Shown here piece after piece: positions 24,001-59,742 of a DNA stretch of 64,000 nucleotides; position 1 is the stretch's first letter; every line of letters starts with the position of its first letter. This stretch comes from Candidatus Omnitrophota bacterium (GTDB lineage Bacteria > Omnitrophota > Gorgyraeia > 2-01-FULL-45-10), in assembly GCA_026387175.1 (NCBI GenBank), contig JAPLME010000010.1, positions 62,096 to 126,095 of the forward strand. Reading direction: 5' to 3'. The position numbers and the translations under genes are program-made. The notes beneath the pieces were generated by a model. It did not search any database and had not been told where the DNA came from. It saw nothing but the letters and a program-made list of their open reading frames with translations.

Positions 24001-27000
24001 AGCAAGTATAATATTGTCGATGATTCCCTCCTTACGGATATGGACCAGAAATATCTTAAATATTACGAAGAGTTCCTTAATGCCCCGAAACAGAATTTCC
24101 TTAATATAAACAGCCTTTCGGAGGCCCAGGTGAACGCCCTGATCAATGATGTCGGAGTGGCTGAAACTATAAATCTTGCGAGAGACGGTACCGTGACGCA
24201 TGCCGATGCCGTCACGCCGGGTTCGACATATCTTATCAGCGGGTGGACAGGGGGAAATGTCACAGTTCCGGAAAGTATGATCGTTCAGTGGCGGGAAGAG
24301 TCGTGGTCGAATCCTCGATTGGGATGGCAACCCGAAGACCTGGATTATAATAAAGACGGTGTTATCAATGGCTCGGATGGTACCAGTTTTGCGGAGATTG
24401 GCACTATGGTTGCTGCCTTCCAAACCCTCTTCGGGTCCGGGGCAAAGCTAACCCCGGAGCTGAGTGCGGCATATCACGCCCTTGATACTAATGGGGATAA
24501 CAAGATCGATATTCTGGACAAAAAGCCTGCTTCGAATCCTGCTAATACCGCGTTCAATGCTTATATTGATGCCCTTTTGAAAGCGGACGGGGCGGTTTCG
24601 CAGGGAGATGCCGGGAGAAAATTCCTCTCCTATGTTAATCTAGTCACGGCGGCCAATATAACTAAGTGTCAAGACCGCATCGCCCAAGTAAACAGAGATT
24701 TAGAGGCAGCCGGGTCGATCAACAGGCTTACGCCCCTTACACCCAACGATATCCTTAGCGGGATAATGGCGAGCGGCCAGAGTTATCTCGACAATCTTGC
24801 GCTCGTCACGAAGGATAGCATAGATACATCTATGCGTACAATCTCCGCGGCCAAAACCATCGTTACGACACTTAATATGAGCGCGGATGATGTCCTTAAA
24901 AATATATTAACGGACGGCGGGAAGTTCCTCGGGAACCTCGCGCTTGCCACGCCGGCTAATATAAATAAACTCCAAGACCGCATCGGCACTGCAAACGGTG
25001 TATTAGATGCGACCAATCAAATCAAGGCTAATCTAGTTATGTCTGTGAAAGATATCTTTAATAAGATATTGACGGATGGCAAGCCGTTCCTCGATAACAT
25101 AGACCTTGTCATAGCAACTAATATAACTGCGTTTCAAGGCCTCATTACCACGATTAATAATGCATTGCCAACAGGGACAGATAAACTTACGACCCCCCGG
25201 AGCGCGAACCAGGTCTTAAACGATATACTAACCGGCGGTAAGCAGTTCATTGACAATATCAATATCACGGATGAGAGTAAGAAACTCTTTACGGCAGCCC
25301 GAATAACCGCAGCTCAAGTTTGCATTGCCAAAGCAAATGAGGGATTGGCGGCGACTGACCAGCAGCTTACGCCTCTTAAGCCGGATGATGTCCTTAACGG
25401 TATAATATCGTACGGTAAGAAGTTCATCGATAATATAGGTCTCGTCACAGCCGGCAATATAACCACGCCTCAAAACTGTATCAGGGCGGCTAATTTGACA
25501 TTAACCGCCAAGATTCAGGTCCTGACAGCGGATCAGATTTATAGCAGGATAATATCGGGCGGCCAATGGTTCCTGAGCAACATTGCGCTCGTAACGGCGG
25601 ACAATATAACAGCGGCGCAAAACACCATTACCAAAGCTAATTTAGGCCTTACACCCCCGACCGTAAGCCAGCTCTTTGACGGGATAATAGCGAGCGGTGA
25701 GCAGGGCTATGAATACGATGTCGATGGTAACGGTCAGGTCAACCTTCAGGACAAGCACACTGTCGAATATGACGATATTGTGAAGAGGATTAAAAATGGT
25801 AATGCTTCCTCAGGTGATTATGCAAGACAAGCTGTCCTTGATAGCATATTCAATGACTATATTATCGCCAAAGGCTCTGTTTCCCGCGGGGAAAAGTCTG
25901 ATGTAAGGCTGAGTGACGCTACGGTAAATTCTGCCCTGGCTGGAGACAGTAAATTCTTATATTCCCGCTCTACGGCGCCGGTATTTAAAGTCGAAGATAC
26001 CGCAAAAGATAAGAAGATCTACTTTAAGATAATCAACGGCCCCGTTATAAAAGAGACGGATCCCGCAATCACATTTAATATCTCAAAAGACGGCGCGGTA
26101 AATGACTTTATGATAGATGAAACGGATGGATGGACATACGTGAGAGAGATCTCGTCCGTAGCTGACCGGGTGCTCATCGATTATAGTAAGGGCGAGAGAG
26201 TACTTATCGACGATGTAGAACAAAAACCCGAAACATATAGAATTGATACCGATGAAACTACAGGAGCCAAGACTATTGTATTCCTGAATTCACCGGTACC
26301 CGAGGGCAAGTTGGTAACGATAAAAGAGATAAAGACCGAAGCGTCTCCATATGTAAACAGTGATACATCCGGCGTAGATCCGGTGACCAAATGCGTTTTT
26401 GACGGGCAGCTCATACCTCTATCCGGTCTTGCTAATGAATATGAGATAAAGGTGGACGGCGTGGTTCGCCCGCATTTTTCCACGACAGACCCGAAATACG
26501 AGAACTACACGGTCACATGGGACGCAAAGACCGGGTATACGACCGTTGTTTTAAAGATGATGGACAGGTCGATCACTCCGACGTATACCACTGACGGTAA
26601 TAATCCTTGGTGGTATGGGTTCCTGGGCAAGCAACTTACGCTCGGCAGAACTATAGGCAGCGCGACTATAGACTGTGCTTATGATCCTCTCAACACCTAC
26701 GTGATATATCAGGACGGCAAAGAGCTAAAGGCCTCGGACTATACCGCCTCATCCGCGCAAGGCGGGAAGACGTTGATAGTATTTACCAATTCTTTACCAG
26801 GCACCGCGATCTTAAAGGCAAAATCCCTGGAAGGTAATCCTGTCATTGTAGCAACATATGCCCGCGTTACTACACCAATTAGTCGTACTTCAACCGATAC
26901 CAATAGGACAAGATATGCTATGAATGGATTCCTCCGCTCCTACGATCCTCTCGTACCCACAGGCGAACCTGCGGGTGAGCTGAAATTGTCGAGCCTGTGG

Positions 27001-30000
27001 CGCCAAGGCATCTTTTACCTTGAGAATGGGTATAATGCAAATCTCGATAAGAATTCTGACGGGTTCATAGAGGTCGCGCCATATCTGACAACGACCGATA
27101 CGACGTCGAAGCTGAGCGGTCTCCTCGACCAATGCAATATCACCCTGGCCCAAGGGTCGAATCCTACGAAATTCTACGCTGACCGGAACAGTGACGGCTA
27201 TATAGATCAGGCAGATGTTAACGATCTGATCCAATCTAGTGATGAGAACCTGAAAGCATGGGGTAATGCTATTCTAGGTATCCTCAATAAGAATAGCGAC
27301 GTTAACAGTATAATTGACGACAATGAGAGACTATGGATTGCGGATCCGGCTCCCAGTGAGGCCGCTCAAAAGGACGCCGCTATGATCCGCAGCTATCTCC
27401 TTACGCCGATGCATATACCCGGCACGATCATTGTGGATAAGGGGTTTGATTATATCGACCAGATGGATATTAATATACTTAAAGACACTTCGACAGAAGA
27501 TGTTGACTGTGTGACGAAAAAAGAATGGGCTAAGACTATCAAAAATTACCTTGCCAATAATAATAAGCGCGATCAGGGTATTCTCTATTGGCAGAGTGAT
27601 TATTATTCCAGCCATATTCTTCCGGATATGGATGGTAACGGTGTTGTAAATAATGCCGATATAACGGTCGTTGTGAAAGATGCCCAAGGCCACGAGACAC
27701 GGGAAAATAAGTCCGACATTTTGAAGGGATGGCTGAACGGCGATGTGCCCCAGGGAGATTACGAGCATATCATAATGCCCGGCGATGCAGGATGGGACTC
27801 TAGGTACGATCTCAATAATGACGGCATATTAAGCGGAGCAGACCTGGAAGTACTCGCAAGAAATCTAACCCTGCCCCAGGATATTGTCACTGAAGCAAAT
27901 AAGACATTGAGTGACGACAACAAGCTTTCGGATCTGACCACGTCCCAGGTTCTTAACGGCATAAAAGCGAATGGCCAGGGCTATTTCACCAATGTCAGGC
28001 TCGTCACGGCGGCTAATATCACCACGGTTCAAGCCCACCTCAATGAGGTGAACAATTTATTGGCGGATGGTAGCAAGTTTACGCGCGCTACTGAAAACCA
28101 GGTCATGACCGCAAATCAGGTCCTCGATCAGATAATATCAGGCGGCCAGAAATTCCTCGACAATATCCTGCTTGTCACAAAGGATAGTATAGAGAGTTCT
28201 CAAGCGCATCTCAATGATGTGAACAGTCAATTGAAGGGGGTTAAGTTTACGCTCACCGAGGGCCAGGTCATGACCGCGGATCAGGTCCTTAACGGTACAA
28301 TAATGAACGGCCAGACGTTCCTGAGCAATATTATGCTTGTCACAAAGGATCGTATAGTCGATTATCAGACTTCGACCAAGGCGATAAACGATGGGTTGGA
28401 TTCAGGCAATCAACTTACGTCCTTTACCCCCGACGAGATCCTTAGCGGGATAGTAGCAAACGGGCTGGTGTATTTCACCAATATCAATCTCGTCACAGTA
28501 GATAATATAACCACGTCTCAGGCCCATCTCAATGAGGTGAACAATTCATTGCCGAACGGTAACAAGTTTACACGCGCTACTGAAGACCAGGTCATGACCG
28601 CGGACCAGGTTCGTGAAGGTATAATAATGGACGGCCAGAAGTTCCTCGATAACATCAAAGATCTCGTCACGAAGGAGAATATAACCAAGTCTCAAAACTA
28701 CATCGTGGAAGCAAACAAGACATTATCGGATGGTAACCAGCTTACGCCACTGACCGCGGACCAGGTCCTTAACGGTATAATAGGGGGCGGCCAGAAGTTC
28801 CTGGACAACATCAGTTCCACACAGGCTGTTTTGGATGAATTTGTTCCTCACGGATTTGTCGCTCGTTTTAACGAATACATGATAAATAACGCGGCGCTTG
28901 TCGATGATCCGAAAGTGAGCACTGATGCTTATAGCGTATTGCTTGCCACTCATCCCGGAATTACAGATATCAATCTCGACCATAAAATAGACCATTTTGA
29001 TCTCGATACCTATTCTCTTAATTCGGAGACGCGTACGGAACGTGATCATGTGACCTATGAGACTTCGGGCAGGCTCTTTGGATACCGCGATACTGTTACA
29101 TCCCCTTCAACCCCATACCAGGTGACTGAGAGCATCGTATCGGACATCTATTATAACGAGAAGGGCCAGATGGAAGGATATAATCAACTGGATAATAGTT
29201 CGACCTTCCTCGAGTTGAACGGCAAAGACAGCGATTATGCCATTACGACCGAGAATGGGACTATGCCGGATCTCAATATAAGGAATGGGTACCTGAATTT
29301 TGATTTCAACGCCGCCACAGGAAAGTCATTCGAAGTGGGGGTGAGTATAGAAGTTGATAAATATATAGGGACATCCTTGACTCAGGAAGAGTACACTATC
29401 CATTTCGCTCTTGGTGAAAATACCGGCGAGATTAGCTACGATTCCAATACGCCATTCGAGGCTACCTATAATCTCGGCGCCGAATCAGATCTCTGCGACC
29501 GTAAATGGCATTCGGCCCTTCCCTTAAATCTGAGCCTTTATAGGATAATTGACCAGATAGCCAGTAAAAATGGCAGTCCTGCCGGCGCCCGCTATAAGCT
29601 TAACCATGTAAAAGCCATAACGCTTAAAGGCGAAGATGTCCAATTTAAAAATATATCGCTTTCGGCGGATAGCCTTCTCACCGATATAAAACCGGTTTCA
29701 GTCAAAAACTCGCAATGGAATAATGTTATTAAGACTGATCTCGGTACCTTCAATGCGCCCTACGAGAGCGAGCTTACCATAAAGGATATCAAGCGTAGAA
29801 ACTTCAAATATAATGAGCTGATGCAGTCCACCGGCTACCAGGATACGGTCTGGAGTTCCGATAACCCGGCTATCGAGACCGTAAGGACCATTTCCGCCAA
29901 CGTCTATAATGGGCTCGGCCAGATCGTAAGCTCTGACGAGAAGACCGAGACGCGCCAGAACTCGCTTACGGTGAGCTCTCCCGGCACATCGCTTTACGGT

Positions 30001-33000: not shown

Positions 33001-36000
33001 AAATTCTTCTCCAGCCTACGTTTGAGTATCGGATCGGCGAATCAGAATGACGTTATGGCGCTTCTTACAAAGATCTCGAATAATATCAATGACGGTGATT
33101 CCAAAGCGCTTTTAGCTAAAATCGTTGGCGGAGCTGCGGCCAGTTCTATGATAGCGGCTCTCCAGGCATACGGCGGCCTGTTCGCAAGCCTTTTTGGAGC
33201 CGGTGATTTTACCGGAAAACTGGATGAATCGAAAGGTTATTTCGTATATGCCGGCAACATGCTTGTGGGCTCGGCGACCGACAAGACCTCGTATAACGTC
33301 ACTAAAGGGTCGTCTGCGGTCTCATCCGCCAGTTTCAGCCAGACGTTGATTACGAACGTTGACGAATATGGTAACGCTACCGGAAGCTCTACCGTGAGCG
33401 AAAAAGACGGTGTCATTACCAGTACCAAATGGAAGGGCGGCGATTACGATCAAAATGGCCATACCGGCTGGTATTCGACCGTCTCTTCACGCACGGATGG
33501 CACAACGACGATAACTTCAAAGAGCTCGGTAACTAACGCCAAGTATAACAACTACGGCCAGATAACGGGGTGGACCGACACCTCCTGGTCGTCTGCCACG
33601 CCCAACATAACCACGCTTACGATATATTCGAACGTCTCATACAACACTCTCGGCAAGATCGCAGGCTATACGCTTAATATCCATGATTTTGGCCAAGCGT
33701 ATGATTTTAGCCGCCTCCAGGTCTGGTCCAACATGACCTGGTCTGGCGATTTTATGACGAGCGCTACGTACACCAATATGCTGATAGACCCATCCGTTAC
33801 CGCGGGCTCCATCGAGACTATCAGTATCAACAGCCGTAAGGACGGCACAAATACGATCACCGACAGCGTATCTAACAAAAATGGCGTTCGGACTAATACG
33901 ACGAGCACCGCCAATGCCCTTGGCCTTACGATACACTCCACCAGCACCGTTTATGATGCCAATGTAAATGACCCGAGCAAGCGGACCTCGACAAACGAGA
34001 CTTATGAGATAAAATACAGCGCCTCGGGCAGTAAGATAAGCTCGCTTTCCGCGTCTGATGGCAATATTTCGCGTAGTTATTATAACGGCTACGGTAACAC
34101 ATACTATACCCATACCGACTACGCGGACGGCGGTAAATCCGATACCAGCTATTTGTATGGCAGTACCGGGCATCTCCTCTCCTCCAGCAGTTCTTATGTC
34201 AGCGCGCTACATACCGAGGACAAGGTTGAGAGTATAGACCAGGGCACGATGACATCGCATACCACGTACCGGATATACATTATCTCCGTTACGACCTACA
34301 ATGCCGCAGGCGATGCCGTTAATACCACCAGTGATTATCGTACAGAAGGCAGAACCGACATTGTTGCGATACAGGAAGGCGTTGAAGGGCACCACGATAG
34401 GCAAGACTATTGGCAGGGGCGTACTCATATCATTATAGATAACAATTATGATATCCACTGGAGTTCTACGACGCGTCAGGGAACGCAATGGACACAGACC
34501 CAGCGAACGGTAAGCGATGGCCATGGCAATGAGCTATCGAAGACGGAACTTAATACTGTGGAGAACTCTCTCTATAAGGATACCTCGACGTCCAGCTTCA
34601 TTACAGGGTATTACACGGTCTGGACGCAGACGGTCACCAGGAGCGGTAACGGTTGCAGCGGCTCCAGGCAGACGCAGACGACCTTTACCACATACATTCC
34701 GAATGCAACCGGAACAGGATTTGTAAAGGACGAGAGCAGATCATGGACACACACAACAATCGAGAAGACCGGATGGATGAACTCAGGCTGGTTCTCGATA
34801 CTCAAGATATTCGTCTCAGTCTTGGCGGCCATAAGCGGGCAGTGGTATCTGATCCTGGCAAGCGCCGCTCTCTCCGCTTTTCAGGGCATTGCGACGGGCA
34901 ACTGGATGGCGGTCGCGATGGCGATCGTGGGAGCCGTTGTAGCGATATATTTCCCCAACGGTATAGACTGGCTTCAGAATGGTAATCTCGGAATCAATGC
35001 AGTTTTTAACGGCCTCATCAGCCTGGGTATCGGAGCGGCCGCGTATTTAATCGGCTATCTCCTTAAAGATGTTTGCCCGGTGCTCGGCGCGTTATTACAA
35101 GGTGCAGGCCTTTCCATCGCGATGAGCGGCATCCAGCAGTTAGCGCGAGGTATTTGGGGTTCCTTTAATCAGACGCCAACTGGAAGTGCTGGTACTCAGA
35201 CCACTGAGAAACCGGACTTTTCATGGGCAAAAGTGTTCAGTCCGAGTAATGCCTCAAACATAGCATCAGCTGTAGTATCGGCCGGCGTGCAGATAATGGG
35301 GTTGGTAAGCGAGAGGAATAATTGGAGCCCATTCGTTAAATTCCTTGCATCTGTGGGAGGGGCCATTATTGGCGGCATCGTGGCGTGTGCCATAGGAAGT
35401 AATTTCATAAACGCTAGCCAATCAGTCCTTTCAAGTTTGGCCAATAGCTTCTTTAGCCTGGTTGGCACTTATGTCATACAGAAAATTTCTGAGAACATCG
35501 CGAAACGTTATACGGAGAAGAGAGAGGCGATAAATAAGAAGTATGATGTGCTGTTAGCCCGCCTGAAGAATGAATATAATGACGGTAAAGGCTCGATGTC
35601 ACAAGGGCAGTATGATTCGCAGAGCCAGGCCCTTGAAAATTCGCGCGGGCTGGAGCTGCAAGCCCTGGGAGACCAGCAAAATGTCGAAATGATGGGTATA
35701 AGCACCACTATAGGCGCGATCGGAGATATGTTTGCGGCAGTTATCGGGGCTATCGCCTCTAAGTATTTGATGCCGTTGATCGAGAATATATATGTAGCCG
35801 TTAAATATGACCGCAACCTGGATCAGGTAAATTTTCTACGGATAGCATTACCGAAGACATTCGAAGCTATGAAGACATCCGCGATGGCAGGAAAGCTCTT
35901 CCAGGGTAATATCGACCAATATATTCAGTTTGCTGCAAAGAATTATGGCGCAGATACGATTGAGAGCTGGGGCATTAATTTCGAGTCGTTGGGAGTAGGG

Positions 36001-39000
36001 CCGGCAGACCAGTATAAAGGCGAAGCGCTAAAACAGCAACAGTTGTCGGAAGGTAAGGGAGTCTGGGACGCTAAGGGCACAGGAATGGGCAACGCGCAAC
36101 TTAATGTACAGCAGATGAGCATGATAGACGCCATGATGTCTTTAGGATTATTTGGTGATTCAGCGAGTAATAGGGTTACCGCAGCGACATTCGGCAAGCT
36201 CACGGGTGACCAGACGATTAAAGATACGATAAGCGCGACACTTGGCGATAACGCTGTTGTGACCGATGTAAAGCTGACGACCGAGAACGGTAAGACCGTT
36301 ATAACATTTGCCGTGGACGCCAAGACCGTGACCGGCCAGGCAAAGAACCTTATGGAATCCGTCCTTAAGGCGGACTCTAACGCGAAGATCGAGGGACAGA
36401 TAGATATCCTTACCGGACAAGTCTCATTCGTGACAAAGATCGAGTCCGGCAGTATGGCGGTCCTCCTGGCTAACCTGGTCCAGAACAATGTCCTGAGCCA
36501 GGTGGCGGTCGCCAATATGACAGCTTCCGCGGAGCAAATGTGCAATGGAGATATATTTAGCGATGATGGCAAGCTCGACTTCAAGAAAGCCGCCGCAGGA
36601 GGCAGTGTCACCGTTAGACTTACCGCAAACGGCCAGGGCAGCTTCTCCTTTGATATGAACGCCAATAATCTGAACAACGAAATGAAGACTGTCGCCGGCG
36701 TTCTCGGTATTGTCGACTCTAATAATAACGTCAAAGTCGTTATCGATGCCGGATCCGGACAGATGTTCCTTGCGATGGGAAAATTGACTTCCACCCAGGC
36801 AGATAGCCTTATCGCGTTTGCCAATGATAACGGATGCAAGACATTCACCCAGCAGCTTGGCGGCCTGGGTGGCTGTGAAATCCTCGGTGGGCAGATAGGC
36901 CTGAACGCGGACGGCAACTTTGTCGGCAAGGTCCAGATCAATATTCGCGCCGGGTCGAGCACGGCCTCATTCTCACTGGGCAATGACGTGGCCGGCCTTA
37001 ACGATCTCGCGAGTATCTTTGGAAGCAATGTGCTCGCTACGATGACCGTTGAGGAAGGCGCCCAGCGGCCGACCCTTGACTCTCTGTCGTTCGGCGCGGC
37101 AAACCTTGACGATATCCTTCTCAAGCTTAACCAGATGCCGGATCTCCAGAAGGTCCTGGCCCCAGCTCTCACAAAACTCAAAGAGGCATCGGACCAGAAC
37201 CTTGTCAACCTGAACAATATAGTGGTGAAGACCGACTTTGGCATCGACAAGACGGGTGATGTGAGGGCGCTTGTCAGCTTCGTATTCAGCTCTATTACCA
37301 CGATAGACATTAAGAATATCCAGATCGCGTTCAAGGTCGATCTCTCGAAGGTCTCGATTGAGAATGGCCTGACTATAGCGACCCTGAACGGCAAGGACTT
37401 CTTCGTAGTTACCGCTGAGACCAAGGTCAATATGGCGGCCGCGCCGGTGAGTGAGATCGCGAGGGTTATCAATTCATACGCTGCCGTCCCGGAGACCGAG
37501 AGGCCTGCCGCTATGGATAAGATAAAAGAGTTAGTCGGGGAGGCCGTTGATACGAATGCGTTTTATGGAGACCGCGCTAGCGCCATAGGCGCCATTAAAG
37601 AACTGAGCGATGCCTCGAGCGCTATCCTGAACGGCCTTAAGAACGGTAATCTGACCATGCCTGAAAGATCAGAGATGGCGGATCTGCTTGAGGGCTGCCT
37701 CGATAAGGCGCGCGAACTGCTCGCATCCGACACGATCCCGTTCGATAAAGAGTTTGCGGGCCTCGCGCTAGGGATGCTGGTCAATGCCAATATCAATCTC
37801 GTCGCTCAAATAGGAAGATTCAGCAAAGATTTCGATCTCTTTGCCTGGGGCCAGATAGAAGCGTCTCTGGATGTGGTCATGAACCTTCTTTCCGTAGATA
37901 ACGTCAATAAGCTGCTGGCCGAGGGCGGCAAGGACTTCGTAATTGCCGCATTCAAGGCGCTTGGCGATATGGTCGTCAACCTTATTCAGAATTTTGCAAA
38001 TCTTGAGAAGAATGGTTTAGGCGAAAAGGCGATGAACAAGATAGCTGAGGCGTTTAACACCATAGAGGCATTCCTCACGATCGATAACGTCGTCTCTCTT
38101 CTCGACAAGGGTTTTGTGGATGTCCTTCGCGCCGCAGTCGAAACTCTGGTCAAAATGACCACAGCCCTTATAGCTAACTTTGGTAATATAAAGGATAAGG
38201 CCCTACAAGCGCAGGCCATGGGAATCATTAAAGGTGCGTTCAGTACGCTCTGTGACCAGAAGACAGGCATCCTGGCGATCGACAATGTCCTGAATATCCT
38301 TGATAAGCGGGATGGCGCTATGTTCCTCACTACAGCAGTTAATGCTCTGGGCAGCATGACCAAAGCGCTCATCGAGAACTTCTCGACATTTGCCAAGAAT
38401 GGTTTCGGCAAAGAAGCTATGGATATCATCACAACCTCGTTTAATACGCTCTGTGACCAGAAGATAGGAATTCTCGCCGTGGATAACGCGATGAAGATCC
38501 TGGCTAAGGTCGGCGGTGCGGTATTCCTTATCGCGGCTGTCAATAATCTCACGATGATGGCCGTAGCCATGATAGAGAACTTCGGTGTCTTCGCCAGTAA
38601 GGGTTTCGCGGCAGAAGCCATGAATGTGGTAGAGCTTGCTGTTACTACGGTCTCGAACCTTCTCCAGACGGATGTCATAACCGAAATGCTTAAGAAAGGC
38701 GGAGATTCGGTAAATGTCATTACCGCGGCACTCGCATCACTGACTACTATAACTGCCAAGCTCGCAGAGAACATAGCTAACTTTGGCGGTGAAAATAAGG
38801 AAGCGGCATTAAAGCTTGTACTGAAAGCGCTCGGCACATTGGTCAAGCTGGGGTCTTTTGAGGCCATCAATAATATTCTTGACTCAGCGAGGGCCGGCGG
38901 CGATGTCAAGAAGGGCGAAGCTGTGATAGCGACAGCCGCGGTAGATATCGCCTTACTGTCTAACGCGCTCTTGAATGGTAAAGGTATCGATGCCCTGACG

Positions 39001-42000
39001 ATGCTTAAAGAGAACCACTGTCTCGACGCGGTAGAAAATATGATGGAAGCGTCGATGAAATTCACCGATGACTCAAGTAAATGCCGTGTTGTCGCGGCGG
39101 CCTCATTAATGCTCGAGGGAGCCATCAATAACGTACAGTCGTTCGACAGGTCAAAGATCGAAGCGTTTGCCGCGACGTTCAAGGAGATATTAAAGAGCTA
39201 TATGCTGACCGTCGGCGGCGCCTCTGACACTGCGGTCAAAGAAGCGGACGCGTTCCTGAATGCCGTATTCGGGCCTACTATAGATCTGGACATACTCAAG
39301 AACGGCTTAGAGAAGATGAACAAAATCCTGACGCCGCTTCTCAAGACGACCACCGCTCTCGACATGATGATAGGCCAGTCTAATTATACGGTAGCCCTGA
39401 CTTACGCGCTTGGCGGCCGTGATGGAATGGAGCTTATGGTAACCGCCAGTTTAAGCGTGCTGCCGGCCGCTTTCCGTGACGCGAGAGGTATCATCGATAC
39501 CTTTAAGGTCGACCAGGTCTCAGACCTCCTTAAATTAAGCCCAGTCGATAAGTCGGCATTAAACGGCTCCCTCGCTGGGAAGGATATTGGGCCCGTAATC
39601 TTTACAACGACGAATGGCACCGATTTTACGCTGGGCGCGCTTACTCCTACCACTGGAGCGGCACCTGCAGCTACCGCCGCCGCTGTCGAAGCTGCTAAGG
39701 CATCCGCCATTTCAAAAGATAACGCCCCCGCCGCATTGGGCCTGTCCGAAAATCGTTTATCTGCGGATGCCAGCAGAGAACTGATGTCTTACGTTTCTGA
39801 TGGTATGAGGAAGGCCGCTGGTCTCACAGGCTCAGAGGATATTTACTTTGTTGCCCGTACATCGGGAGGTAAGACAGACTATGTTGCATATAAGGAGGGA
39901 GACAGTAACTCGCCCTTTACCCTATCGAGAAACGGGGAGGGTGTGTGGTATCTCTCTCATTACGGCGATAATTATTTCTATGGCGGCACATATAAGACCT
40001 CATCCGAGATCAAAGAGATCGGCGAGAAACGCGGGATGATAAATTGTTCCTTCGATCTGACCACCGGCACGCTAAGCGGCCAGCTTCTCAAAGACGGTGT
40101 TACGCATGATGTGAAGATGTTCCTGAGCGGATGGCTCATGGCAGTGGACGGGAAAGCGATAGAGACGATTTCCAACTACAAACTGAACGTCAAGAATGCC
40201 GCCGGTGATACCGTTTCAATGGCCGGCAAAATGGAAGTATGGGGCTATGATGCTAGTGACACTCCGTTTGGCAGGTTCAGCCCATCCGAAGCGATAACTA
40301 TACCATGGGTACAGGAGATACTGTCCAGCGCGAGAAGCGCGGCGGATGCAGTGAAGACGGCCTCAGGTTCTGGAATGCCGGCGCTTCCCCCAGAGCTTAA
40401 GAACATTGGCCTGACCGTAAGCACCGGCGCGGACGGTGTGAATTACATCGAGATGACATCCCAGAGCGCTCTCGTAGTGGTGGGTGGTCAGCTTATGCCG
40501 TTTGCCAACCCGCAGGATGTAGCCATTAAAGCCGGATATACGGAGAAGGACGCTTACGGCAAAACGATCATGGTTTATAGTACGGATGCGATTGTAACAG
40601 GTATCGATGCCCAGGGTAACAGAATGTACGCGTCGGAGTGCTTCTATGAAAAGGAAGTCGCCGGAACGATGGTGCAGTATGTGTACGTTAAGGACATGGT
40701 AGTGACGGAGACCGGCGAGAAGGTGACAGGAGAGTTCTGCCTTGCCGGACAAAGGATAACCCGGGACTGTGCATTCTTCGGCGTTCCAGGCACCTATAAA
40801 TTTAACTTTATATCAGGCAGTGATTTTGAATTTGAAATTAACGGAAGAACGGTGAAGGCCGGCGGCTTCGAACTCGATCACGCTGTCGGACAGAAGATAT
40901 CGATTCCGGGCGCGACTTTAGAAGTAGTCGAAAACGATAACGGTGTTAAGAATATCAAGGTCTATTATACAAATGCGATATCCGCCTCGACATCTACCAG
41001 GGTGGGAGAGCTTACTATCGGACCCCGATCGCTTATCTTCGATGCCGCGAGCCTCGCCGCGGGAGGCCCTAGGGTGATCGCGTACCTTGTTGACGATGTC
41101 GCGATACAGGGCTCGACGCTGCGCGAATGCGTGCTGAAGAATGGCGCCCAGTTGGCGATTGGCATGGACGGGTCCTTCGTAATACAGCAGGGCACGATCG
41201 TCTCGGGATGCGTGGAACGCTTAAATATTAATGGTATGCAGGTCGCCCCAGGCCAGCAGAAGGCCGGAGAGTCGGGCGGAGCCGCTCCAGAACCGGTCAG
41301 GCTCGGTCACGACGCGGAAGGTACGCACATTCTCTTCAAATCCATCTCGGTAGTAAACGGTGATTTCGCGCTTTCATTAGGGCAGGAGATGGTCATTGAC
41401 AGCAGCTTTACGTCCGCTCCCGCGGGTACCACATTCGCTCTCGGTAAAGCTATCCTCACCGCGACCGGTAATAACTGCATCCTTAGCGGCACAGACGGCG
41501 TTACGCAGTTCACTGGACAGCGCATTGATATAGTGAGGAATGATAATGGACAGATAGCATGGGGAATACCAGGCCTCGCGGATTATCTGGCCGGTAGCGA
41601 CGTGAAGATGAGGGATATCTATAAGATGACTCTTAGGGGGGAGTCTATCGGATATGTGGCGACGGTCGAGACGGAAGGGGGGACGGCAAGAGTCAGCTTT
41701 AAGAGTATAGATGAGCTTAGAGCGGCCGCAGCGAATTTCGTGGATAATATGGAGAGGCGCGAGGTCACCCTGACAGATATCCATAATACTCTTAACGGAG
41801 AGAGGAATATCCCCGTTTCGAAATCCGATCTCTTGAGCCTGATGTGGCGCTACAGCGCGGCGAAAGGCAATGCCTTCGACGACTTTATTGACAGGATTGA
41901 AAGCGGCGAGATGAACCGCGCTATCGTAGACGGTATTATCAATTCGGGTGCCGGTCTAGAGAATCCGATCAAATATTCCATCCTCGAAGCCCTTACCATA

Positions 42001-45000
42001 GCGGGAGGACTCGACAAGAAGGTCTTTAATGCTCTCAAAAACAGGATAGAGAGCGCCGACGTAACCACTCAAGATATAGACGGAATACAAAATGGCGCCG
42101 CAGCCATTAACAAGAAGTTATCTGAAAAAGATCAGATTAAGCTCACGGATAAGGAGATACACATCGCGCTGATAACGATGAATGATAAAGAGCTTGCGGA
42201 TATCAGGAATAATATAGGTAATCCGGACATAAACGCCAAGAATATAACCGACACGATCAAAATGATCGATGCTGCGGTAGGAGAAAAGTTCAGCAGTACC
42301 CAGGTCTTCATGATGCTGATGAGGATGAGCGAGACAAAGCTCGATAACTTCATATCGCACATAGGTGATGCGAGGATAAACGCCGAAAATGTAAATGCTT
42401 TGGTTGACAAAGCTCAATCCGCCGCAGGAGTTGATCTTTCTAAGATGCAGGCCTTCATGATGCTGATGACTCTGGACGATAAGAAGCTCGATAACTTCAT
42501 CGCGAACCTGGACAACAAAGCCATAAATAGCGGCAGTATAGGCCTTGTGGTAAAGATGAGCGGGATTATGGGCAAGGGGATATCCAGAGAACAGGCCTTC
42601 TTCATGCTGATGTCGATGAGCCCATCTGCGGTGGGGAGTTATCTCGCTGGGATGAGGGAAAAATATGAGTTCTTGACGAATAACCAGGAAAAGATACAAA
42701 ACTACCAGAAAGCTCTTACTGAAGTAACTGGCAAAAAAGCTACACTGGCCCAGGCAATGCAATACGCTATTAGGGCTGGAGAGAATCCGCGGGACACTGC
42801 ACTTTCAAAATACGGCACTTTAGAAATGATCGGCCAAAAACTTCTTGATCAAGATAAGCTTGAAACAGCCATAACTACGGCGCTTAGTTCCTCATTGATG
42901 TTGGATCCGACGGCCCAGCTTGTGGCTGCGCTGACGGATACCTTAAGCAAAGAGTTAAAATCTCCCGCGCTTGAGCCCGGAGTGGAAAAGGCGTTATATA
43001 CTCTTCGAGCAATGAGGCTAGATGAATATGCCCTTCAGGCAAACGAATCCAATAAGGCACAAACATTATTACCAGGTACGAGAGCGGATGCGGCGCTTCA
43101 GTGGTCGGCGGCTGACGGGAAGTCATTTAATCTTGGAGGAGATGATTTTGGAGCTTTGGTTGATTCGCTCAAATATGTCGGCCAGGTAATACAGCTTGAC
43201 GCCGTAGCATACAAATTCTCAGCAGAGATCCAAACATGCCTGGTGCAGAAATTCGGGACCGACATCAAAAATATTGTATCAGGGATCTCTATTGCTGCTG
43301 TGATGCGAAGTTCCGAGGTGTCTGATGAAAAGATCATCGCCGCGTTTTCCGACCAGGCAGTTCAGGCAGTGCTCTATGGTAGATCCGCCGAGATGAGCAT
43401 AGTGACGGATGCGACCGGTACTTACCTGAAAGCCGTGCTCGATTGTTCAGCGAAGCCGATTACGTCAATGGTGAACGGCAAAGAGCTCCTATTCTCGAGC
43501 ATGCTGAGCCCTGACGGGATGACTTCTACGCCATTCTTATCGTTGCGGCTCCTTGGGAACGGCAGCTGGCAGACGCTCAATAGCATGGCCGCCGTTACTA
43601 ATGAAGCGCTTAATTCGGCTGATAAATCGACAGGCATATATACCCTTAATAAAAATGCTGTTATCCGTCTCAATGCCGATGGTGGCATGAATATCGCGAA
43701 TGGCGTGCTTACCCTCGAAGGCAGCGCATATATAAATGCGTCTGTCGAAATGGGTGGTATTGCAGTGGCGAAAGGTCTCCCCGGTAAAGGCGGGGCTGGT
43801 GAAGTGCAGACGATCCATGTTACCGGTGATGGTATTCTATATAATGGCACTATCACTATTTCCGATGACAGGGCGGTGATAACCGAGAAACAGGTCTTTC
43901 TGTTAGACAGCGGCGCTTCCCTTACCGTTCATAATGGTGACATCACAAAAGAATATAAAGTCGATATCTGTATGGTCAATGGCGATTTGCAGCGTTTAGA
44001 CTGGGCGGTTCATGGTGTGACCGCTAAACAGGAGATAGCAAAATTCCTAAACAATCTCCTTGCTGGCGCTCTCGAGATAAGGATGGGCACAGATGCTATA
44101 CGTAGCGGCCTGGGAGATAATGCACCCATAGATTCAAAAGCCATTGAAGCTCTCGCAAAAGGAATCGCGAATAATGATATCGGATACAAGGAGGCATTGG
44201 AAAAGATTTCCGAATGGGGCAAGGTCTTCAAGGTAACGGAATTTGGTACTGCCGCCGATGGCTTCGCGGGTTTAGTCACGGATAGCGGCGCAAGCTACGA
44301 TCTTGTCAAAGAATTTAATGCCAGATGCGTCGATATATCGGCTATGTTCGGGGTAAAAAATGCGGAGACCCTAAGAACGGATATGAGAAAGATGCTTGTT
44401 GAAGGAATCGCTTTGGCGGAAAAAGCCGTGGCCGCAGAAAAGTATAAACCTCTCTCTACCGATGATTCTGAAAGATCCCTGACGACTTATCGAGGCGCTC
44501 TTGCAAGACTTGATAGTGGTGCGCCGTTATCAGAAGTGATGGATATAGTGCGCTATGTCTATCATTCTTCGCTATTCGGCGGAGTAAGCCGGGTAAGCGT
44601 CGAAGATGAGCTTGGTATCGCAAAAGTGGGTATGAGTACGGATGGAGTTCTCGATATGGCAAGGAGTTATGAAAGAGCTATGATCGGTGGTGACCTTGTT
44701 GGGGCTTTTGCCATCCTGTCGAGCGAAAAATACAATGCGGCAGTGCAGGCGGTAACGCTATTGGGTGATGAGATAGGTCAGGATACTGCGCGCCGTATCG
44801 CTTTCGGGGACGATAAGAGTGCCAAGATGCCCACGATAGATCAGCTTACGAATGCGATCATGTTAGGCGGAGAGAATGCCCTTCTCGCGAAAACAAAGGT
44901 GGAGGAGATAAGAAGTAATAATGAGCTCTGGGCAGAGTCGAGATCCACGTGGTGGTATCAGGCATCGAGCGCCCTGATGGGCAAGCAATATGAAAAAGCG

Positions 45001-48000
45001 GATAGCTGGGATATCGCGAAGGGTGCGGCGAAAGGAAGCCTGGCTATAATTGCTGCTACGACCATTTTGGTCCTTTCAGGCGGTACTGCTAGCGTTGCGC
45101 TTGGGACGTTTGGTAATTTCATGCTGGGTGCGGCTTATGTAGGCGCTGGGGCCATGGCACTGAACCTTGGCGCATATACTGCATACGGGATGATTACGGG
45201 GCGTGATCTTTATACAGGACAGCAGGCTTCAGCGTGGGGCGCGATCGGCGGAGCCATTGGTGGTCTTGGCGAGGGATTTGCATTTGCTCTCGCGTTCCAA
45301 GGCGCTGGTGCGCTTCTGGGCAATTTCAGCAAAATCGCATCAGCTGCTGAAACTGGATGGAAAGCATATGCTGTGCAGGGAGTTACCTCCGGCTTGATGG
45401 GTGGCGTTATTAACGTCGGAAGAGAATGGCTTACTAGTGGAAATGACTACTCAATATTCAGTAAGGAAGCGGCTCGAGACTTTGCCATAGGATTCGGGTT
45501 AGGCGCGATCGGTGGATACCTCGGAGCTTGGGGCGTTAATTTCGTGAACTTAGGAGGGGCTGCCCATACAACTATCCAGACGTTGGTTACAGTGGTTAGT
45601 ATGGGCATTGTAAGTGCCATAGGTGGTCTTATCAATAGAGCTTACTTCGGAAGCCAGGGCTGGAAGAGCGGCCTCGGTAACTGGAATACCTTATTAGATT
45701 TTGGCTTTGGGGCGAGTATCGCCGCTGGATTAAAGCTTGCCAGTGCAGGGCCAGCAGGCGCTTCAAGATTTATAAATTTTGCCGGAGTTAATGGCGGTTT
45801 CTGGGGAAGCATGAATGGCGCTATCGCAAGGACGCTTATGGTGACCACATCCTCGATTGCGATAAGCATTTTCCACTACCGTGACAAGATTTGGGTAGGT
45901 GAAGATAACGTTTTCAACTCCTCCAACTTCCTGCTTGCGGCAGCGAATGGCCTTATTACGGGCCTATTCATCTCATATATCTTAAGTCCGCGCGGCATTG
46001 GCCATTTGGCAGGCAAGGAAATCGGTGGTGTTAAAGATGGCGTGGCCCAGAAGATCATCAAAATTACAGATACTACCAGCGCAAATATCACGTGGTGGCC
46101 TGGAAAGACACTACCCATTAATTTCCCTGGTGCAGGTCTTCTTGCGGAAGGCATCAGAGGCGCCATGGTATTCACATTTATTAGTCCAATGTTCTATACC
46201 TTTAATACGCTTGTGTGGAATCCATTGATCAAGGGTGAAAAGACGGGCTGGAGTTGGGAGCAGTTTGCGGCAAGCATACCGCAAGGATGGATCTCAGGGT
46301 TCTATCTACAGCCTCTGATCAGTATATTTACCATAGAGCTTACCCGTCCCGAAGGCTTTGGGCAAGTCTTTACGCAGAGTGGTCTTATAGGCAAGGCGAT
46401 GGCGATAGGAGAATATGCGGTATCATGGATGAGGGGAAAGGCATTTGCTGCTACCGAAGATACTCTATGGATGAGAGGTATTGCTGCTCTGGGCGGGCGT
46501 GTAGGTGCCGGTATAGTCGCGCTTGATCAGTATGCGTGGATATCCGGTTTTGTCACGGGAATAGATGCCGCGCTGGATCTTGTATCGGGTCAACGACTCA
46601 ATCCTCTCACCGGCAAGCCTGAGTCCACGGGACACATCGGTTTCTCGCTAGCCTCCAGAGAGATTCTCTCGTGGGCCGCGCTATTTATACTGCCGATGGT
46701 TAAATATACGGTAGAGGCACAAATAAATATCGCTCTCAGGAGCCTTGACAGGAGCGTGAAGGTTTCTTCCGCAGAGAAGGCAGAGTTCTACAGCTTTGTT
46801 GCCGGTATACGGGAACTGCAGGGAAAGGAGCAGGTGAAAATATTAGAAAGCCTTGCTAAATACGGAGAGACAACTTTCAAGGATCATGCAGGCAGGTTTG
46901 TTTCATATTATCTTAAAGAAGGCATGACTCCTCTTGCTACGAACGAGCTCATAAGGATGGGATATGGTGAAAGGAATTTTGAATTCCTGAGAGATCTCTG
47001 TTTGAGTGACGTGACTAAGCCTGACCAGAATATCAAAATCGAAGGTGTTGACATTAGTATCGATAAGTATATGTCCGGGATAGGGGACTCCCTCTTTATA
47101 ACAGCTATCGCGAATTCTGGTATTAATCTGAGAGATCTATGTCTATCGATCGATCCAGGTAAGATGGAGACGCTTGGTACTGTATTGGACAGGATGCAAG
47201 ACGTGCCGGCTGTTTCCGAAGCCCTCAAGGACGTTACGCTGAGAATGGATGCCCAGATGGCATTAGCAAAACTTGCGGGCCTCGAGACCGCATTTGCGGT
47301 AAACGCGCAACGCAGAGAGGAATATGTAATTAAGTATAATGAAGCGGTGCGTGAGTCAGGGTTAAAGCTGAGCGATGGTGAATTTACCAATGAGCAATTT
47401 GATGGTAGAGCTGTTGAGCAGAACCTTAGGGAGAGAATAAAGTTTGCCCAAGATGCTCAGGCGCGAGGAGAGAAAGTTGATGGGGCTGAGCTTATGAAGA
47501 TGAAAGATCTCCTGACAAGGCTGGATGTTATGAGAGGAGAATATGAGAATATAACCTTCGTTGTCATTGGCAAGGAGAATATTGCCAATTTCAGAGAAAA
47601 GAATATGATCGTCGAAGAAGCGTCGAGCGGTAAAGGCAATATGGACTATATACTCCTCGAAGGCGCTATCGAGAATCTTATCAGATTCAATCAGGATGAT
47701 ATCATGAAGCCGCAGAAGGAAGAGACGGAGACGAATAGAGGCTTTGCTAAAAATTGGGAGAATTTCACTATTCTGATTAAGGACGGACTCAAGGGTGGTT
47801 GGGGTAAGATGATGGAATATTTCACGGAAAAGAAGTTTACCGAGGCTAATGTTATCGAGGTCTTTGGCGGCAAGTTGTCAGGTGATTTCATCGAGCAAAA
47901 AGGTAGAGAGCTTACTGGTGGGCAATTGGTGAATGGAAAAATCGTTGGCGGGAAATCAGATGCCGATGTTAATGGTAAGAATGCTATAAAAGGTGATGCT

Positions 48001-51000
48001 GCGCGCATTATCATGAAGGATGCCCTTGGAAGGCTTCAACAGCAGATGGAGATACTGAGAAGCGCAGGTGACACCAAGTCAGAAAACTATAAGGACCTTA
48101 ATTGCATGACTAGAACGCTCAAAGAGTGGATTGAGTGCAGTGAAATTATGGGCGATGGATTTGCCTTACAGCCATCTCAGTTGGCATATACCTATCTTAT
48201 GGCTCGTTCAAAATTAGCTCAGATGGAAGGGAAGAATATAGGCCTTCCGACGTTTGTAGCAAGGGTCGGTGCAGGAAAGATGGACGGAAATATCATTGGT
48301 TGTTTTATCGCTCTGGGCATGTATAAAGAGGCGACCGGTAAGGGCGCGAAGATGGTAATCATTGTCGATGCATCCAGGACGGATCTTGTTAGTCAGAATA
48401 TTACAGTTGCTGACAGCATGAAACTTGTCCTAAAACTCGCTGGCAGGGGAAGCTACGAAGATCTTGCAGTATATAAGGTGGCTTCCAATGAAGGCGCAGG
48501 CGGCAATGTGCTGGCGCATCAGGCGACCTTAGGTAAGGATACTGCCGGGAAAGATGTGGTAATTATTTCGGAGGATGGCATAACTGATAAGAGCAAGATT
48601 TCTGAACAGGCTATGTTTTTCGCGACGACAAGGGATATCCAGGAACAGATTGCGCGAAGTAGAGATGGCCAGTCAAGCCTCATGACCGAAGGTTTTCTCG
48701 ATAGTCTGCATATAGATGAGATCCAGAATACGATTGCGGCAAATGACCTCATTAAGAGCGCGGGACACGATCTCTATAAGAGGTTGCAGGTGCTTTCGCC
48801 TGACCTTGCGGCCAAAATAGAGTATCGTTCGAAACTCATTGACAGTATGGTCAGATATGTCGCAGGAGTTCTCGATGTAGAAGGTGACTCGTGGGACGCG
48901 GATGTATTGAGACAGGCAGGGCTTATTGAAAGTGTCAAGGGTGCCGCCAGAAGGACATTTACACTCAATGAGGCCTTGACCGGGAAATTAGAGAATATGG
49001 TAAAAAGTGACTCACTATTCAGCGCATATATTAATGAAAAAGGTGAGCTCAGTTCAAGTTTCCATGATTTTATCAGAGAAGTGGTGACATCCTGTCTCAT
49101 GAATGACAGAGAATATTATAAAGACGATATGCGGCAGGCTTATGTGATGACTGATGGGGATAGTGGAATGCCTATGCCTAATACAATATTCGGTGATAAT
49201 CTTAGGGCTGCCTGCGTGGCGGCTAAACATGGCTGGGGGATTGAAAAGATAGCGGATTCATTGTTACAGCACTCTTACATGAATGTTTCGACCGCTGATG
49301 TGATAAAGGCGTTTGGTGCATGGAATACCACGGGAGGCACTGGTACTGCTGAAGGCACAAGAAAGACTATAGAGAATATCAATGATAAAGCGCCAGGCCA
49401 TCTTGCCAAAGCCACCACAGAGACGCCGCTCATCAATAATTACCATTTACTGAGAAATGGTGAGGATGCGACTAGAAATGAAGGAGCTGTCCAGGTAGGT
49501 GAGAGCATTAAACGAGGTACCGATGCAATAGCTATTACAAGTGAATCGAGGAACGTTTGCTATGACATGTATGGCCGCGTGAAAGACGCGTACAAAAATA
49601 TGCCTGTCTATATTCTGATCAGAGGAGAGACAGATGGCGGTCTTACTTGCAGAATGGCGGATGGTAGTTATATGACGTTCAATGATGCCGTTAAAGATAT
49701 AAAGACCAGATTTAATGACGGCGAAAAGATGGTCGTTATTATTCAGGGTCTCTCGACAGGAAGTAACATATTCGGGCTGAGGGAAGGGGTCTCGAGAAAA
49801 GCGGACGTTATAAAACTTGGGCTTACCAGTTACGACAACCTGCGCCAGATAAGCGGTAGAATTAACGATGAAGGCGGAAAGCGTGCCCAAGGAGGGAATT
49901 TCATCCAGATAGTGAATATGTTTGACAGAGATATTAAGGATTCCGAAAAAGCGCTTTTGAGCGATCTCGCCGAAAGCAAGGACCCCGTTGACCAGGAATA
50001 CCTTAAGCTAGCCATTATAGCTATCCAGTCGGAAATTAACATGGAGATCGATGAGAGCAGGCTACAGCAGTTCATGGAGAAGTCTGGTAATTCGCGGGCA
50101 AATATAGCTGAGAAGATGGCTGATATCAGGAGGAGCTCGGAAGGAATGCTGACATTGCAGGATGTGGTATCGAAGAGCATACCGGTCACAGTGGCCGGTA
50201 TAGGAATGATCCAGGGCATATCTCCAAGCGGTAGTAATGCATTGACAAATATGATGGTCGATATGACAGAGTCGGGAGGTGTAGATCTGGTCTTCAGGAA
50301 CAGGAACATAAACGGCGCTTACGATGATATTGTCATCGATGCGGTAACCGGCAAGGTTGATTCGAATACGCGGCTTACTTATGATGGTGCGGTCTTTGTG
50401 AAGAACGTGATTGCCGCCAATAATCTCTTAAGTGCCGCCGCGGATGCCCGTCAAGCGATTGCATTTGCCCTAAAGGATGCGGGGGTAATGACAGATGGTA
50501 TTACGACAGCTTTGGGTAATTATATAGAAGTAGAAAAAGGCGGTTCCACTGGTGTTAATATAGATGCAACGTTAGGGCTTGTAAAGGAACTGCGTACAAA
50601 TGGAATCTATGACGGCATTATGCCCATCAGCGTTCTGATAAATAACCTGGTTGCAATCGGAAACTTCTGGGGCGGTATCAAAGCTATTTCTAACACAGGG
50701 CATACTATGACGAAGGATGAGATAACTTCGATGGTAAAATCTAGTGATATCAGGCAATCTTTTGTGGATTATTGTGGGCGGATCGGTATAGAGACAGTAT
50801 TGATTAATGTCCTTAAGAATAATATAAAGGCAGAGAGAAATTTGCGTTTTATTGAAGAAAATTTGGCGACCGCTATCAAAATTTACGGACCGCAATCGCG
50901 CGAGGTCAAGAGCTTGCAGACCCAGGTTGAAAAAGCCCAGAGTAGCCTTAACATGTACACGATCTCGGTCAGGGAGTTCTTAAAGAATCAGGATCAATAC

Positions 51001-59465: not shown

Positions 59466-59475
59466 AAGGGTGAGG

Positions 59476-59742
59476 ATGATGCGTAAAATATGGGCAATTT
59501 TATTAATGATCGCGGGTATGGCCGTTTCGGCGTTTTCGGTAGCCTTGATGAACGATTTTATCATGTTGGCCCGGCCCATCATCTTAATGGGCTCTAAGCT
59601 TCGGCCGAATAACACCGTTGTCGAAAGCGCCGTTGCGATGGCCCTTATAATGTTAATTTTTATGGTGGGCTTGGCGCTTATCGTCATAGCCGGTGTAAAT
59701 ATAATAAAATCATTTTATAAACAGGGAGGGAGACCTTCATGA
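59476..59742 (+). CDS. Small two-helix membrane protein (88 aa), translationally coupled between the two patatin genes
   Basis: A GGTGAGG Shine-Dalgarno sequence then ATGATG at 59476. Two hydrophobic helices (AILLMIAGMAVSAFSVAL, AMALIMLIFMVGLALIVIAGV). Its stop overlaps the ATG of the next gene (ATGA at 59739-59742). The ORF track extends the frame back to 59269, inside patatin 1, which is unlikely to be real. Confidence 0.55.
   Translation: MMRKIWAILLMIAGMAVSAFSVALMNDFIMLARPIILMGSKLRPNNTVVESAVAMALIMLIFMVGLALIVIAGVNIIKSFYKQGGRPS

Follow-up and report, generated by a model that had tools for sequence, protein, structure and literature searches.

Giant Proteins of Omnitrophota and the Studied Locus

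Very long proteins are encoded in genomes of Omnitrophota, and we have analyzed one of their genes, the giant gene of Candidatus Omnitrophota bacterium located in a 64,000-nt stretch of contig JAPLME010000010.1 (positions 62,096 to 126,095; hereinafter, the window). The closest described systems are the Omnitrophota “dockerin-type” giants, which contain EF-hand/dockerin, discoidin, and RHS-like beta-helical regions, and in which C39-like peptidases occur (West-Roberts et al., 2023, 10.1101/2023.11.21.568195). Most giant open reading frames (ORFs) of the class Omnitrophia encode multiple transmembrane (TM) helices together with discoidin, Laminin_G_3 or dockerin domains (PMC10066038), and TM helices or a signal peptide are present in 94% of 916 long Omnitrophota proteins (10.64898/2026.06.07.730766). 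TM predictions for giant proteins are called unreliable by their own authors (10.1101/2023.11.21.568195), and insertion by Sec, the signal recognition particle (SRP) and YidC at this scale is untested, according to a 2026 preprint (10.64898/2026.06.07.730766). One more described giant is archaeovorin of Velamenicoccus archaeovorus, which, according to PMC10066038, has 39,678 amino acids (aa) with 42 predicted TM helices, and is proposed in the work cited there to be a surface coat or an adhesin used on prey.

The giant gene is a single 56.2-kb ORF (nt 13–56244 of the window, + strand, ATG start) encoding an 18,743-aa protein; all features of this gene listed below by nucleotide or residue number are on the same strand. 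It exceeds the 20-kb criterion of PMC10066038 and is below the length of at least 30,000 aa of the West-Roberts core set. The protein contains four hydrophobic clusters, A to D, all within its last 38%. Here we focus on cluster A (nt 34792–35808, aa 11,594–11,932), a genuine, non-chance cluster of six to eight moderately hydrophobic helices. We consider it probable, with considerable reserve, that this cluster is a lineage-specific anchor in the producer’s own cytoplasmic membrane, for which we infer an even number of passes.

The studied protein shares with the dockerin-type and Omnitrophia giants the host phylum, a single ORF longer than 50 kb, and the lack of a Pfam match over most of the sequence. 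Similarly to the dockerin-type giants, it has a TM-free N-terminal majority with dockerin, discoidin, LamG, and RHS-like repeats, and C-terminal TM clusters (by hydropathy only). It may also have the C39-like peptidase and the SecA-like region of these giants, for each of which the match is weak here. On the contrary, it is shorter (18,743 aa, compared to the focus on at least 30,000 aa), Pfam detects neither thrombospondin type 3 repeats nor a SecA_DEAD domain in it, and genes of type II secretion have not been found in the 8 kb of flanking DNA available downstream. For cluster A, no homologue can be detected, and the relative P0003, considered below, lacks it. As in archaeovorin, many internal TM helices of a giant Omnitrophota protein separate large soluble regions; archaeovorins, however, have TM helices and enzyme domains throughout, whereas the studied protein lacks TM helices in its first 11,000 aa and has no detected enzyme domains. 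Cluster A is thus an instance of a published class-level feature and, at the same time, an orphan without a detectable homologue.

Some features are shared with Rhs/YD-repeat polymorphic toxins and teneurin-like proteins, namely 34 copies of the YDxxG(R/Q) motif, an RHS_repeat match and a weak PT-TG match in cluster B. Unlike in Rhs toxins, there is no DPxGL autoprotease motif (DPxG[LWMIV] is found nowhere in the protein), no recognizable toxin domain, and neither PAAR nor VgrG in the context, and the TM cluster is internal, not N-terminal of the prePAAR type.

Hydrophobic Helices of Cluster A

Seven candidate helices have been predicted in the core of cluster A (nt 34792–35481, aa 11,594–11,823) based on hydropathy, the charge map and the secondary structure of an AlphaFold2 (AF2) model: TM1 (nt 34798–34872), TM2 (nt 34897–34956), TM3 (nt 34990–35064), TM4 (nt 35071–35139), TM5 (nt 35248–35310), TM6 (nt 35335–35403), and TM7 (nt 35416–35481), with TM4 and TM5 being marginal. 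An eighth hydrophobic helix, also marginal as a TM segment, is localized at nt 35689–35808 (aa 11,893–11,932); it contains D11905 and is continuous with the return arm of the charged hairpin that separates it from TM7.

The initial annotation of this DNA, made from the sequence alone, had described a dense cluster of hydrophobic helices at nt 34790–35830. These coordinates are accurate, corresponding to aa 11,593–11,939 of the single ORF, and the cluster itself is confirmed. In a Kyte–Doolittle (KD) scan with 19-residue windows, the flagged 347 aa contain five separate segments with KD of at least 1.6 and eight with KD of at least 1.3, whereas random 347-aa draws from the whole-protein composition yield on average 0.34 segments of the former type, with the maximum of three (n = 2000). 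Shuffling of the flagged region itself produces five such segments in only 0.9% of cases. Throughout the protein, just one of the 17 peaks with KD of at least 1.6 is in aa 1–11,000, and the remaining 16 are in aa 11,001–18,743, as judged by hydropathy only. Moreover, uncharged runs of 53, 47, 32, 26, and 25 aa, constituting five of the 25 longest runs of the protein, adjoin each other in cluster A, and charged residues occupy 12 of 230 positions in aa 11,594–11,823, compared to 21.6% protein-wide.

Two other scales have been applied to the same helices. By the Wimley–White octanol energies, TM1, TM2, TM3, and TM7 are favorable and the remaining helices, marginal or unfavorable, the free energy (dG) of the eighth helix being –0.9. 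Crude position-independent sums on the Hessa scale, with the values reportedly published by Hessa and colleagues in 2005, range from +1.0 to +5.8 kcal/mol for the eight candidate helices. A Hessa sum of at most 2 is observed in one window of the flagged 347 aa, compared to none in aa 1–11,000, and three further windows of the flagged region have sums between 2.1 and 2.9. The single-sequence AF2 model of cluster A is helical throughout, with the mean predicted local distance difference test score (pLDDT) of 52. Taken together, three hydropathy scales, the charge map and the all-helical AF2 model make embedding of cluster A in a membrane well supported.

The reported richness in Gly and Ala also holds, as these residues constitute 10.4% and 12.4% of the cluster A region, compared to 8.2% and 8.8% protein-wide. 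The suggested GxxxG/GxxxGxxxG glycine zipper, on the contrary, has not been found: strict GxxxG is present twice in the flagged region, an average figure for this protein (37th percentile among its 347-aa windows), and GxxxGxxxG is absent. Enrichment is seen for the less strict pattern [GAS]xxx[GAS], which occurs 43 times (97th percentile) and forms 20 triple zippers (98th percentile). Hence, cluster A is an Ala/Ser/Gly small-residue zipper, not a strict glycine zipper.

Transmembrane glycine zippers (GxxxGxxxG) of channels and pore-formers, VacA and MscL among them, were reportedly characterized by Kim and colleagues in 2005. Cluster A resembles them in having small residues spaced four apart on hydrophobic helices, with close packing predicted, and differs in that its zipper is mostly Ala/Ser and that it shows no homology to such a family. 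As the motif is not enriched and no similarity to a channel, pore-former or translocator is seen, we regard the pore or translocon function that had been proposed from the glycine zipper as unsupported and improbable.

In its nucleotide composition cluster A is ordinary, with the GC content at third codon positions of 0.556 (compared to 0.541 ± 0.044), and no DNA repeats flank it as marks of a recent insertion.

Charged Hairpin Between the Last Two Helices

The seventh helix is followed by a charged antiparallel helical hairpin (nt 35482–35688). Helix A of the hairpin (aa 11,824–11,856) is K/R-rich, with nine K/R in 33 aa and the net charge of +4; then come the turn, DGKGSMS, and helix B (aa 11,864–11,892), which is Q/S/E-rich with the net charge of –4. 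This is the sole confident element of the AF2 model, with pLDDT of 75–93 over aa 11,823–11,893 (model helices H245–303 and H311–379). In the model, TM7 runs unbroken into helix A, and helix B returns and continues into the eighth hydrophobic stretch.

The initial annotation had claimed a charged coiled coil at this place, quoting a string KREAINKKYD… that begins at aa 11,836 (nt 35518). A charged helix does follow the core of the cluster, but, going by the AF2 model, the coiled coil is better described as a hairpin within one chain, whose two antiparallel arms are complementary in charge and which would bridge the last two hydrophobic helices. The length of the hairpin, as estimated from approximately 33 residues per arm, would be about 50 Å. 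In an eight-helix model with the N-terminus outside, 13 K/R residues are on the inner side (14 with K11776 at the start of TM6) and five on the outer side (six with K11598 in TM1).

Relatives and Phylogenetic Distribution

Homologues of cluster A were searched for with aa 11,554–11,963 as the query. No match has been found in 5.8 billion proteins by a word-indexed search, nor in GTDB genomes, JGI metagenomes, or phage and plasmid records by tblastn. Pfam and NCBIfam yield nothing meaningful on cluster A (the MscL match in Pfam has E = 9.6), and the best Foldseek match of its low-confidence AF2 model in PDB has E = 0.21 and TM-score below 0.2. ABC-exporter TM domains, being the top Foldseek matches, were discarded as meaningless at this E-value.

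The region directly after cluster A, on the contrary, does have relatives. A full HMMER search with aa 11,500–12,699 against 1.84 billion representatives yields three matches, all of them Omnitrophota hypothetical proteins and all confined to aa 12,016 and further, none covering cluster A. The module shared with these sole detectable relatives (nt 36058–40299, aa 12,016–13,429) includes HEAT-like helical repeats, and the gap from the end of cluster A to this module is only about 115 aa in the giant protein. A metagenome scan with the alignment of the shared module (A1) yielded nothing.

One of the relatives, P0003 (MBF0252175, 4,103 aa), continues a giant gene across a scaffold gap in the metagenome-assembled genome (MAG) GCA_015231715.1. 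At its locus (L068; JADGBB010000001.1, 1–15949), the upstream ORF matches aa 5,558–7,435 of the studied protein, and the whole split gene is co-linear with aa 5,558–12,466. Residues 1030–2551 of P0003 match aa 9,612–11,094, residues 3022–3484 match aa 12,016–12,466, and between these flanks there is a 470-residue Ser/Asn/Asp-rich low-complexity linker, with no credible TM segment in the linker or anywhere else in P0003. The gene ends about 620 aa past the matched stretch, without clusters B–D and without the SecA-like part, and a secretin gene is located 6 kb downstream. Hence, these giant proteins appear to be modular in their C-terminal membrane part.

Another relative, P0004, is a partial, contig-length ORF 51% identical to the giant protein over aa 12,045–13,429. 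Upstream of the match, it has 607 residues of Pro/Ser/Thr-rich repeats, which are TM-free with the maximum KD of 1.24. As P0003 keeps both flanks without the cluster, and P0004 has no cluster in the covered 607 aa, cluster A is, by these comparisons, not a conserved domain but a lineage-specific feature. It was gained in the studied lineage or lost in the relatives, at a site where a flexible linker is otherwise present.

Possible Topology and Alternative Explanations

The proposed topology follows from the comparison with P0003: the flanks are contiguous and TM-free there, which would place both of them in one compartment, and flanks sharing one compartment would imply an even number of passes for cluster A. 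We infer that the membrane is the cell’s own, that the N-terminus is outside, and that the switch of sides occurs at cluster B. Under this model, cluster A would be an even-pass “staple” with both ends outside (N-out/C-out), sitting permanently in the producer’s cytoplasmic membrane and tethering the 11,600-aa fibre of YD-repeat, lectin, discoidin, and dockerin modules. Tight packing of the helices would be provided by the small-residue zippers. The K/R-rich hairpin, standing on the last two helices, would extend approximately 50 Å from the cytoplasmic face, and the chain would switch to cytoplasmic parts only at cluster B, which precedes the SecA-like region. Thus, of the membrane crossing proposed in the initial annotation, the embedding is retained, whereas large portions on both sides of the membrane exactly at this point are a less likely possibility, the helix count being six to eight and the junction of the flanks in P0003, TM-free.

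Several observations weigh against this model. The membrane part of cluster A is modeled by AF2 with low confidence (pLDDT below 50), and three of the eight helices are marginal, with the Wimley–White dG of about 1 or below and Hessa sums of +4.3 to +5.8, which makes the helix count and the parity of passes tentative. The K/R excess on the inner side comes mostly from a single hairpin, whose overall net charge is zero. The giant protein has no N-terminal signal peptide, and we know of no route that exports an N-terminal domain of 11,600 aa, so the outside position of the N-terminus is deduced solely from the types of its domains. The junction is seen in full in P0003 only; P0004, being a fragment of a contig, could have a TM cluster further upstream. 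Finally, the SecA-like region, which would mark the cytoplasmic part, has no match in Pfam (including SecA_DEAD), in NCBIfam or in PDB by phmmer, its BLASTP comparison with Escherichia coli SecA is not significant (E = 0.97), and its AF2 model is poor (pLDDT 36).

The main competing explanation is an anchor in the same membrane with an odd number of passes, that is, a true topological divide with approximately 11,600 aa outside and approximately 6,800 aa inside. If the marginal eighth helix (aa 11,893–11,915) does not span the membrane, seven helices remain, the K/R-rich helix opens the cytoplasmic part, and the positive-inside rule fits; this would agree with the intracellular regions described after anchors in other giants (10.1101/2023.11.21.568195) and with the fact that Pfam detects no domain of an extracellular type past aa 11,932. 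However, P0003 joins the following module to the adhesin-like part without any TM segment, arguing for the same compartment, and in the AF2 model the eighth helix directly extends the return arm of the hairpin, as a mirror image of TM7. Besides, HEAT repeats similar to those at aa 12,470–13,050 have been published only in the predicted extracellular parts of archaeovorin-type giants (10.1101/2023.11.21.568195). On the whole, we regard an odd number of passes as rather unlikely, though deserving attention.

A soluble origin of the signal, with cluster A forming the hydrophobic core of an all-helical soluble domain or merely reflecting compositional noise in a very long protein, is highly improbable. 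The low AF2 confidence in cluster A would be compatible with it, as would the presence of isolated hydrophobic helices in HEAT-like repeats (aa 12,836, KD 2.05) that are kept in soluble-looking relatives. Still, compositional noise does not produce the observed number of peaks in any of the 2000 random draws, and a soluble domain is hard to reconcile with a row of eight hydrophobic helices, with uncharged runs as long as 53 and 47 aa, and with a window whose Hessa sum is at most 2, not seen in the first 11,000 aa.

The membrane in question could also be a foreign one, as in the second suggestion of the initial annotation. Cluster A would then be a facultative insertion or translocon module directed at a prey or host, shielded until contact and then either forming a pore or delivering the C-terminal part. 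Its helices are moderately hydrophobic and rich in small residues (Hessa sums of +1 to +5.8), in which they resemble the inserting hairpins of helical toxins (colicins, the T domain of diphtheria toxin, the delivery domain of TcdB) and of type III secretion translocators. The fact that cluster A is lineage-specific and not a conserved anchor and the absence of a signal peptide from the giant protein point in the same direction, and so do the reports that Omnitrophota are predatory or parasitic and the proposal that giant ORFs of other small symbionts form pores (PMC10066038). Nevertheless, there is no sequence or fold similarity of cluster A to any pore-former, translocator or channel, and the strict glycine-zipper motif is not enriched in it. 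At least five strongly hydrophobic segments in 230 near-uncharged residues are far above what is usual for a soluble carrier domain, the three further hydrophobic clusters downstream fit threading through the cell’s own membrane, and no chaperone-like gene is evident in 8 kb downstream. Insertion into a foreign membrane is therefore, in our opinion, improbable, and equally so is its particular variant, in which cluster A and the basic hairpin form a recently acquired, self-contained insertion cassette that enters the prey membrane on contact. If this variant were true, a part of the C-terminal 6,800 aa, the SecA-like motor included, would act across or inside the prey envelope, and a translocon would be built into a 2-MDa predatory fibre. 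In a milder version, cluster A may be a new kind of mid-chain, even-pass “staple” pinning the middle of the giant extracellular fibre to the producer’s membrane.

N-Terminal Part of the Giant Protein

Extracellular-type modules identified by Pfam are located together at nt 6397–9552. They comprise an RHS repeat (RHS_repeat, aa 2129–2164, E = 2e-11), Laminin_G_3 (aa 2235–2384, E = 8.4e-27), F5/8 type C discoidin (F5_F8_type_C, aa 2486–2594, E = 5e-7), and Dockerin_1 (aa 3125–3180, E = 5.4e-7). Out of the 34 YDxxG motifs of the giant protein, 33 are within aa 718–11,145, and beta-rich YD-like repeats reach right up to cluster A. No TSP3 family is present among the Pfam matches with E of at most 0.01 in the whole protein, and beyond aa 10,000 there is no Pfam, NCBIfam or PDB sequence match.

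A weak Peptidase_C39-like stretch is observed at nt 1225–1476 (aa 405–488), with Pfam E = 6.7e-4 and 19.9 bits, compared to the cut-off of 22; the NCBIfam peptidase-ABC model matches the same stretch with E = 0.0067. Its function might be cleavage of the giant protein at Gly-Gly sites, a role that has been suggested in other giants of Omnitrophota. Upstream of it, at aa ~362, there is a Cys motif, NCAAAAL.

Two arrays of helical repeats without a Pfam match are seen by eye at nt ~24500–25800 (aa ~8,170–8,600) and nt ~27900–28900 (aa ~9,300–9,620). The repeat unit is a few dozen residues long, and its consensus resembles LTP..ADQVLNGII.GGQKFLDNI.LVT..NIT..Q.

Regions Downstream of Cluster A

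HEAT-like tandem helical repeats of the shared module, approximately 65–70 aa each as judged by eye, are located at nt ~37400–39200 (aa ~12,470–13,050), and are kept at 51% identity in the Omnitrophota fragments P0002, P0004, and P0005. Isolated hydrophobic helices are found inside these conserved repeats at aa ~12,836 (KD 2.05) and aa ~12,969; they are probably buried, not membrane helices, and are open to being miscalled as TM segments.

The true glycine-zipper maximum of the protein is hydrophobic cluster B, identified by hydropathy at nt 45022–46692 (aa 15,004–15,560), approximately 3,400 aa downstream of cluster A; the whole hot spot covers nt ~44962–46692 (aa ~14,984–15,560). Within 350 aa of it (aa ~14,990–15,350), there are 20 GxxxG and six GxxxGxxxG motifs. 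Cluster B also has two long uncharged runs, of 56 and 52 aa, and no fewer than eight hydrophobic segments, as well as a sub-threshold Pfam match to PT-TG (pre-toxin TG; E = 0.006–0.016). No equivalent of cluster B is present in the relative P0001. Two more clusters are C (nt 51307–51642, aa 17,099–17,210), also identified by hydropathy, and D (nt 54688–54798, aa 18,226–18,262), an uncharged run of 37 aa. An HSHP…D motif at nt 55285 (aa 18,425), JAB/MPN-like by eye, was dropped, as it has no Pfam support at E of at most 1.

The SecA-like region is localized between clusters B and C, approximately 4,400 aa downstream of cluster A. SecA-like motifs are observed there by eye in the order known for SecA at nt 48268–49932: a Walker-A-like GAGKMDG (aa 16,086), a DEAD-like IDEIQ (aa 16,234), and a stretch resembling the preprotein-crosslinking domain (PPXD) that ends with GGTGTA (nt 48949–49386, aa 16,313–16,458); an R-rich motif VI-like stretch is also present in the region (aa 16,086–16,640). 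The Thr of Walker A is replaced by Met (GAGKM), and hence the ATPase may be degenerate.

The Smith–Waterman comparison of this region with E. coli SecA yields z = 3.0, with five of 300 shuffles scoring as high. An earlier SecA profile, comprising only Enterobacterales sequences at 90% identity or higher, was uninformative, while for a profile of 14 diverse SecA, SecA2, and SecA-like sequences from PLSDB records, scanned over 53 chunks of the giant protein, the best match in the entire protein is at aa 16,313–16,456 (E = 0.042). Alignment of SecA residues 269–406 with aa 16,313–16,458 by hhalign has P = 6e-4 and the probability of 29%. We consider the assignment of aa 16,313–16,458 as SecA-like to be suggestive and, from these comparisons, rather probable.

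A further SecA motor inside a very large protein is observed outside Omnitrophota, in a 3,473-aa hypothetical protein from the mobilizable plasmid pJCM18538 of Mycolicibacterium arabiense (L082; 188139–198560). The embedded divergent SecA-like domain of this protein is 25% identical to E. coli SecA.

Gene Neighborhood

The window opens 12 nt before the giant gene, and no secretion genes, including those of type II, are present in the 7.7 kb downstream of it. This downstream region contains lgt, a gene of a Pro/Ala-rich secreted-looking protein, a cold-shock gene (csp) on the opposite strand, then two tandem patatin-like lipoprotein genes, an ArsR regulator gene, and a gene of a hyfB/nuoL-like membrane subunit. 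The hyfB-like gene, located 5.4 kb downstream, is 68–80% identical in about 30 Candidatus Omnitrophota MAGs and at most 46% identical elsewhere, which confirms that the window comes from an Omnitrophota genome. Among 62 loci around hyfB-like genes, none has a relative of the giant gene. In public read sets, the organism is seen only as short contigs; the patatin-like neighbor is present in the runs SRR25046533, ERR15302182, ERR15302191, and ERR15302175.

The patatin-like phospholipase genes (nt 58230–60956) encode paralogous proteins of 411 and 405 aa, both of which have a signal peptide of the lipoprotein type. In a predatory organism, these enzymes could serve to attack membranes.

Implications for Giant Proteins of Omnitrophota

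How Omnitrophota proteins of 10,000–150,000 residues are made, exported and anchored is an unsolved question. The giant gene studied here is a comparatively clean case, with 11,000 TM-free residues followed by a sharply bounded cluster of helices. What is new is that a relative keeps both flanks without cluster A, so that the two proteins form a natural presence/absence pair. Such a pair could show whether clusters of this type are anchors, topological switches, or something else.

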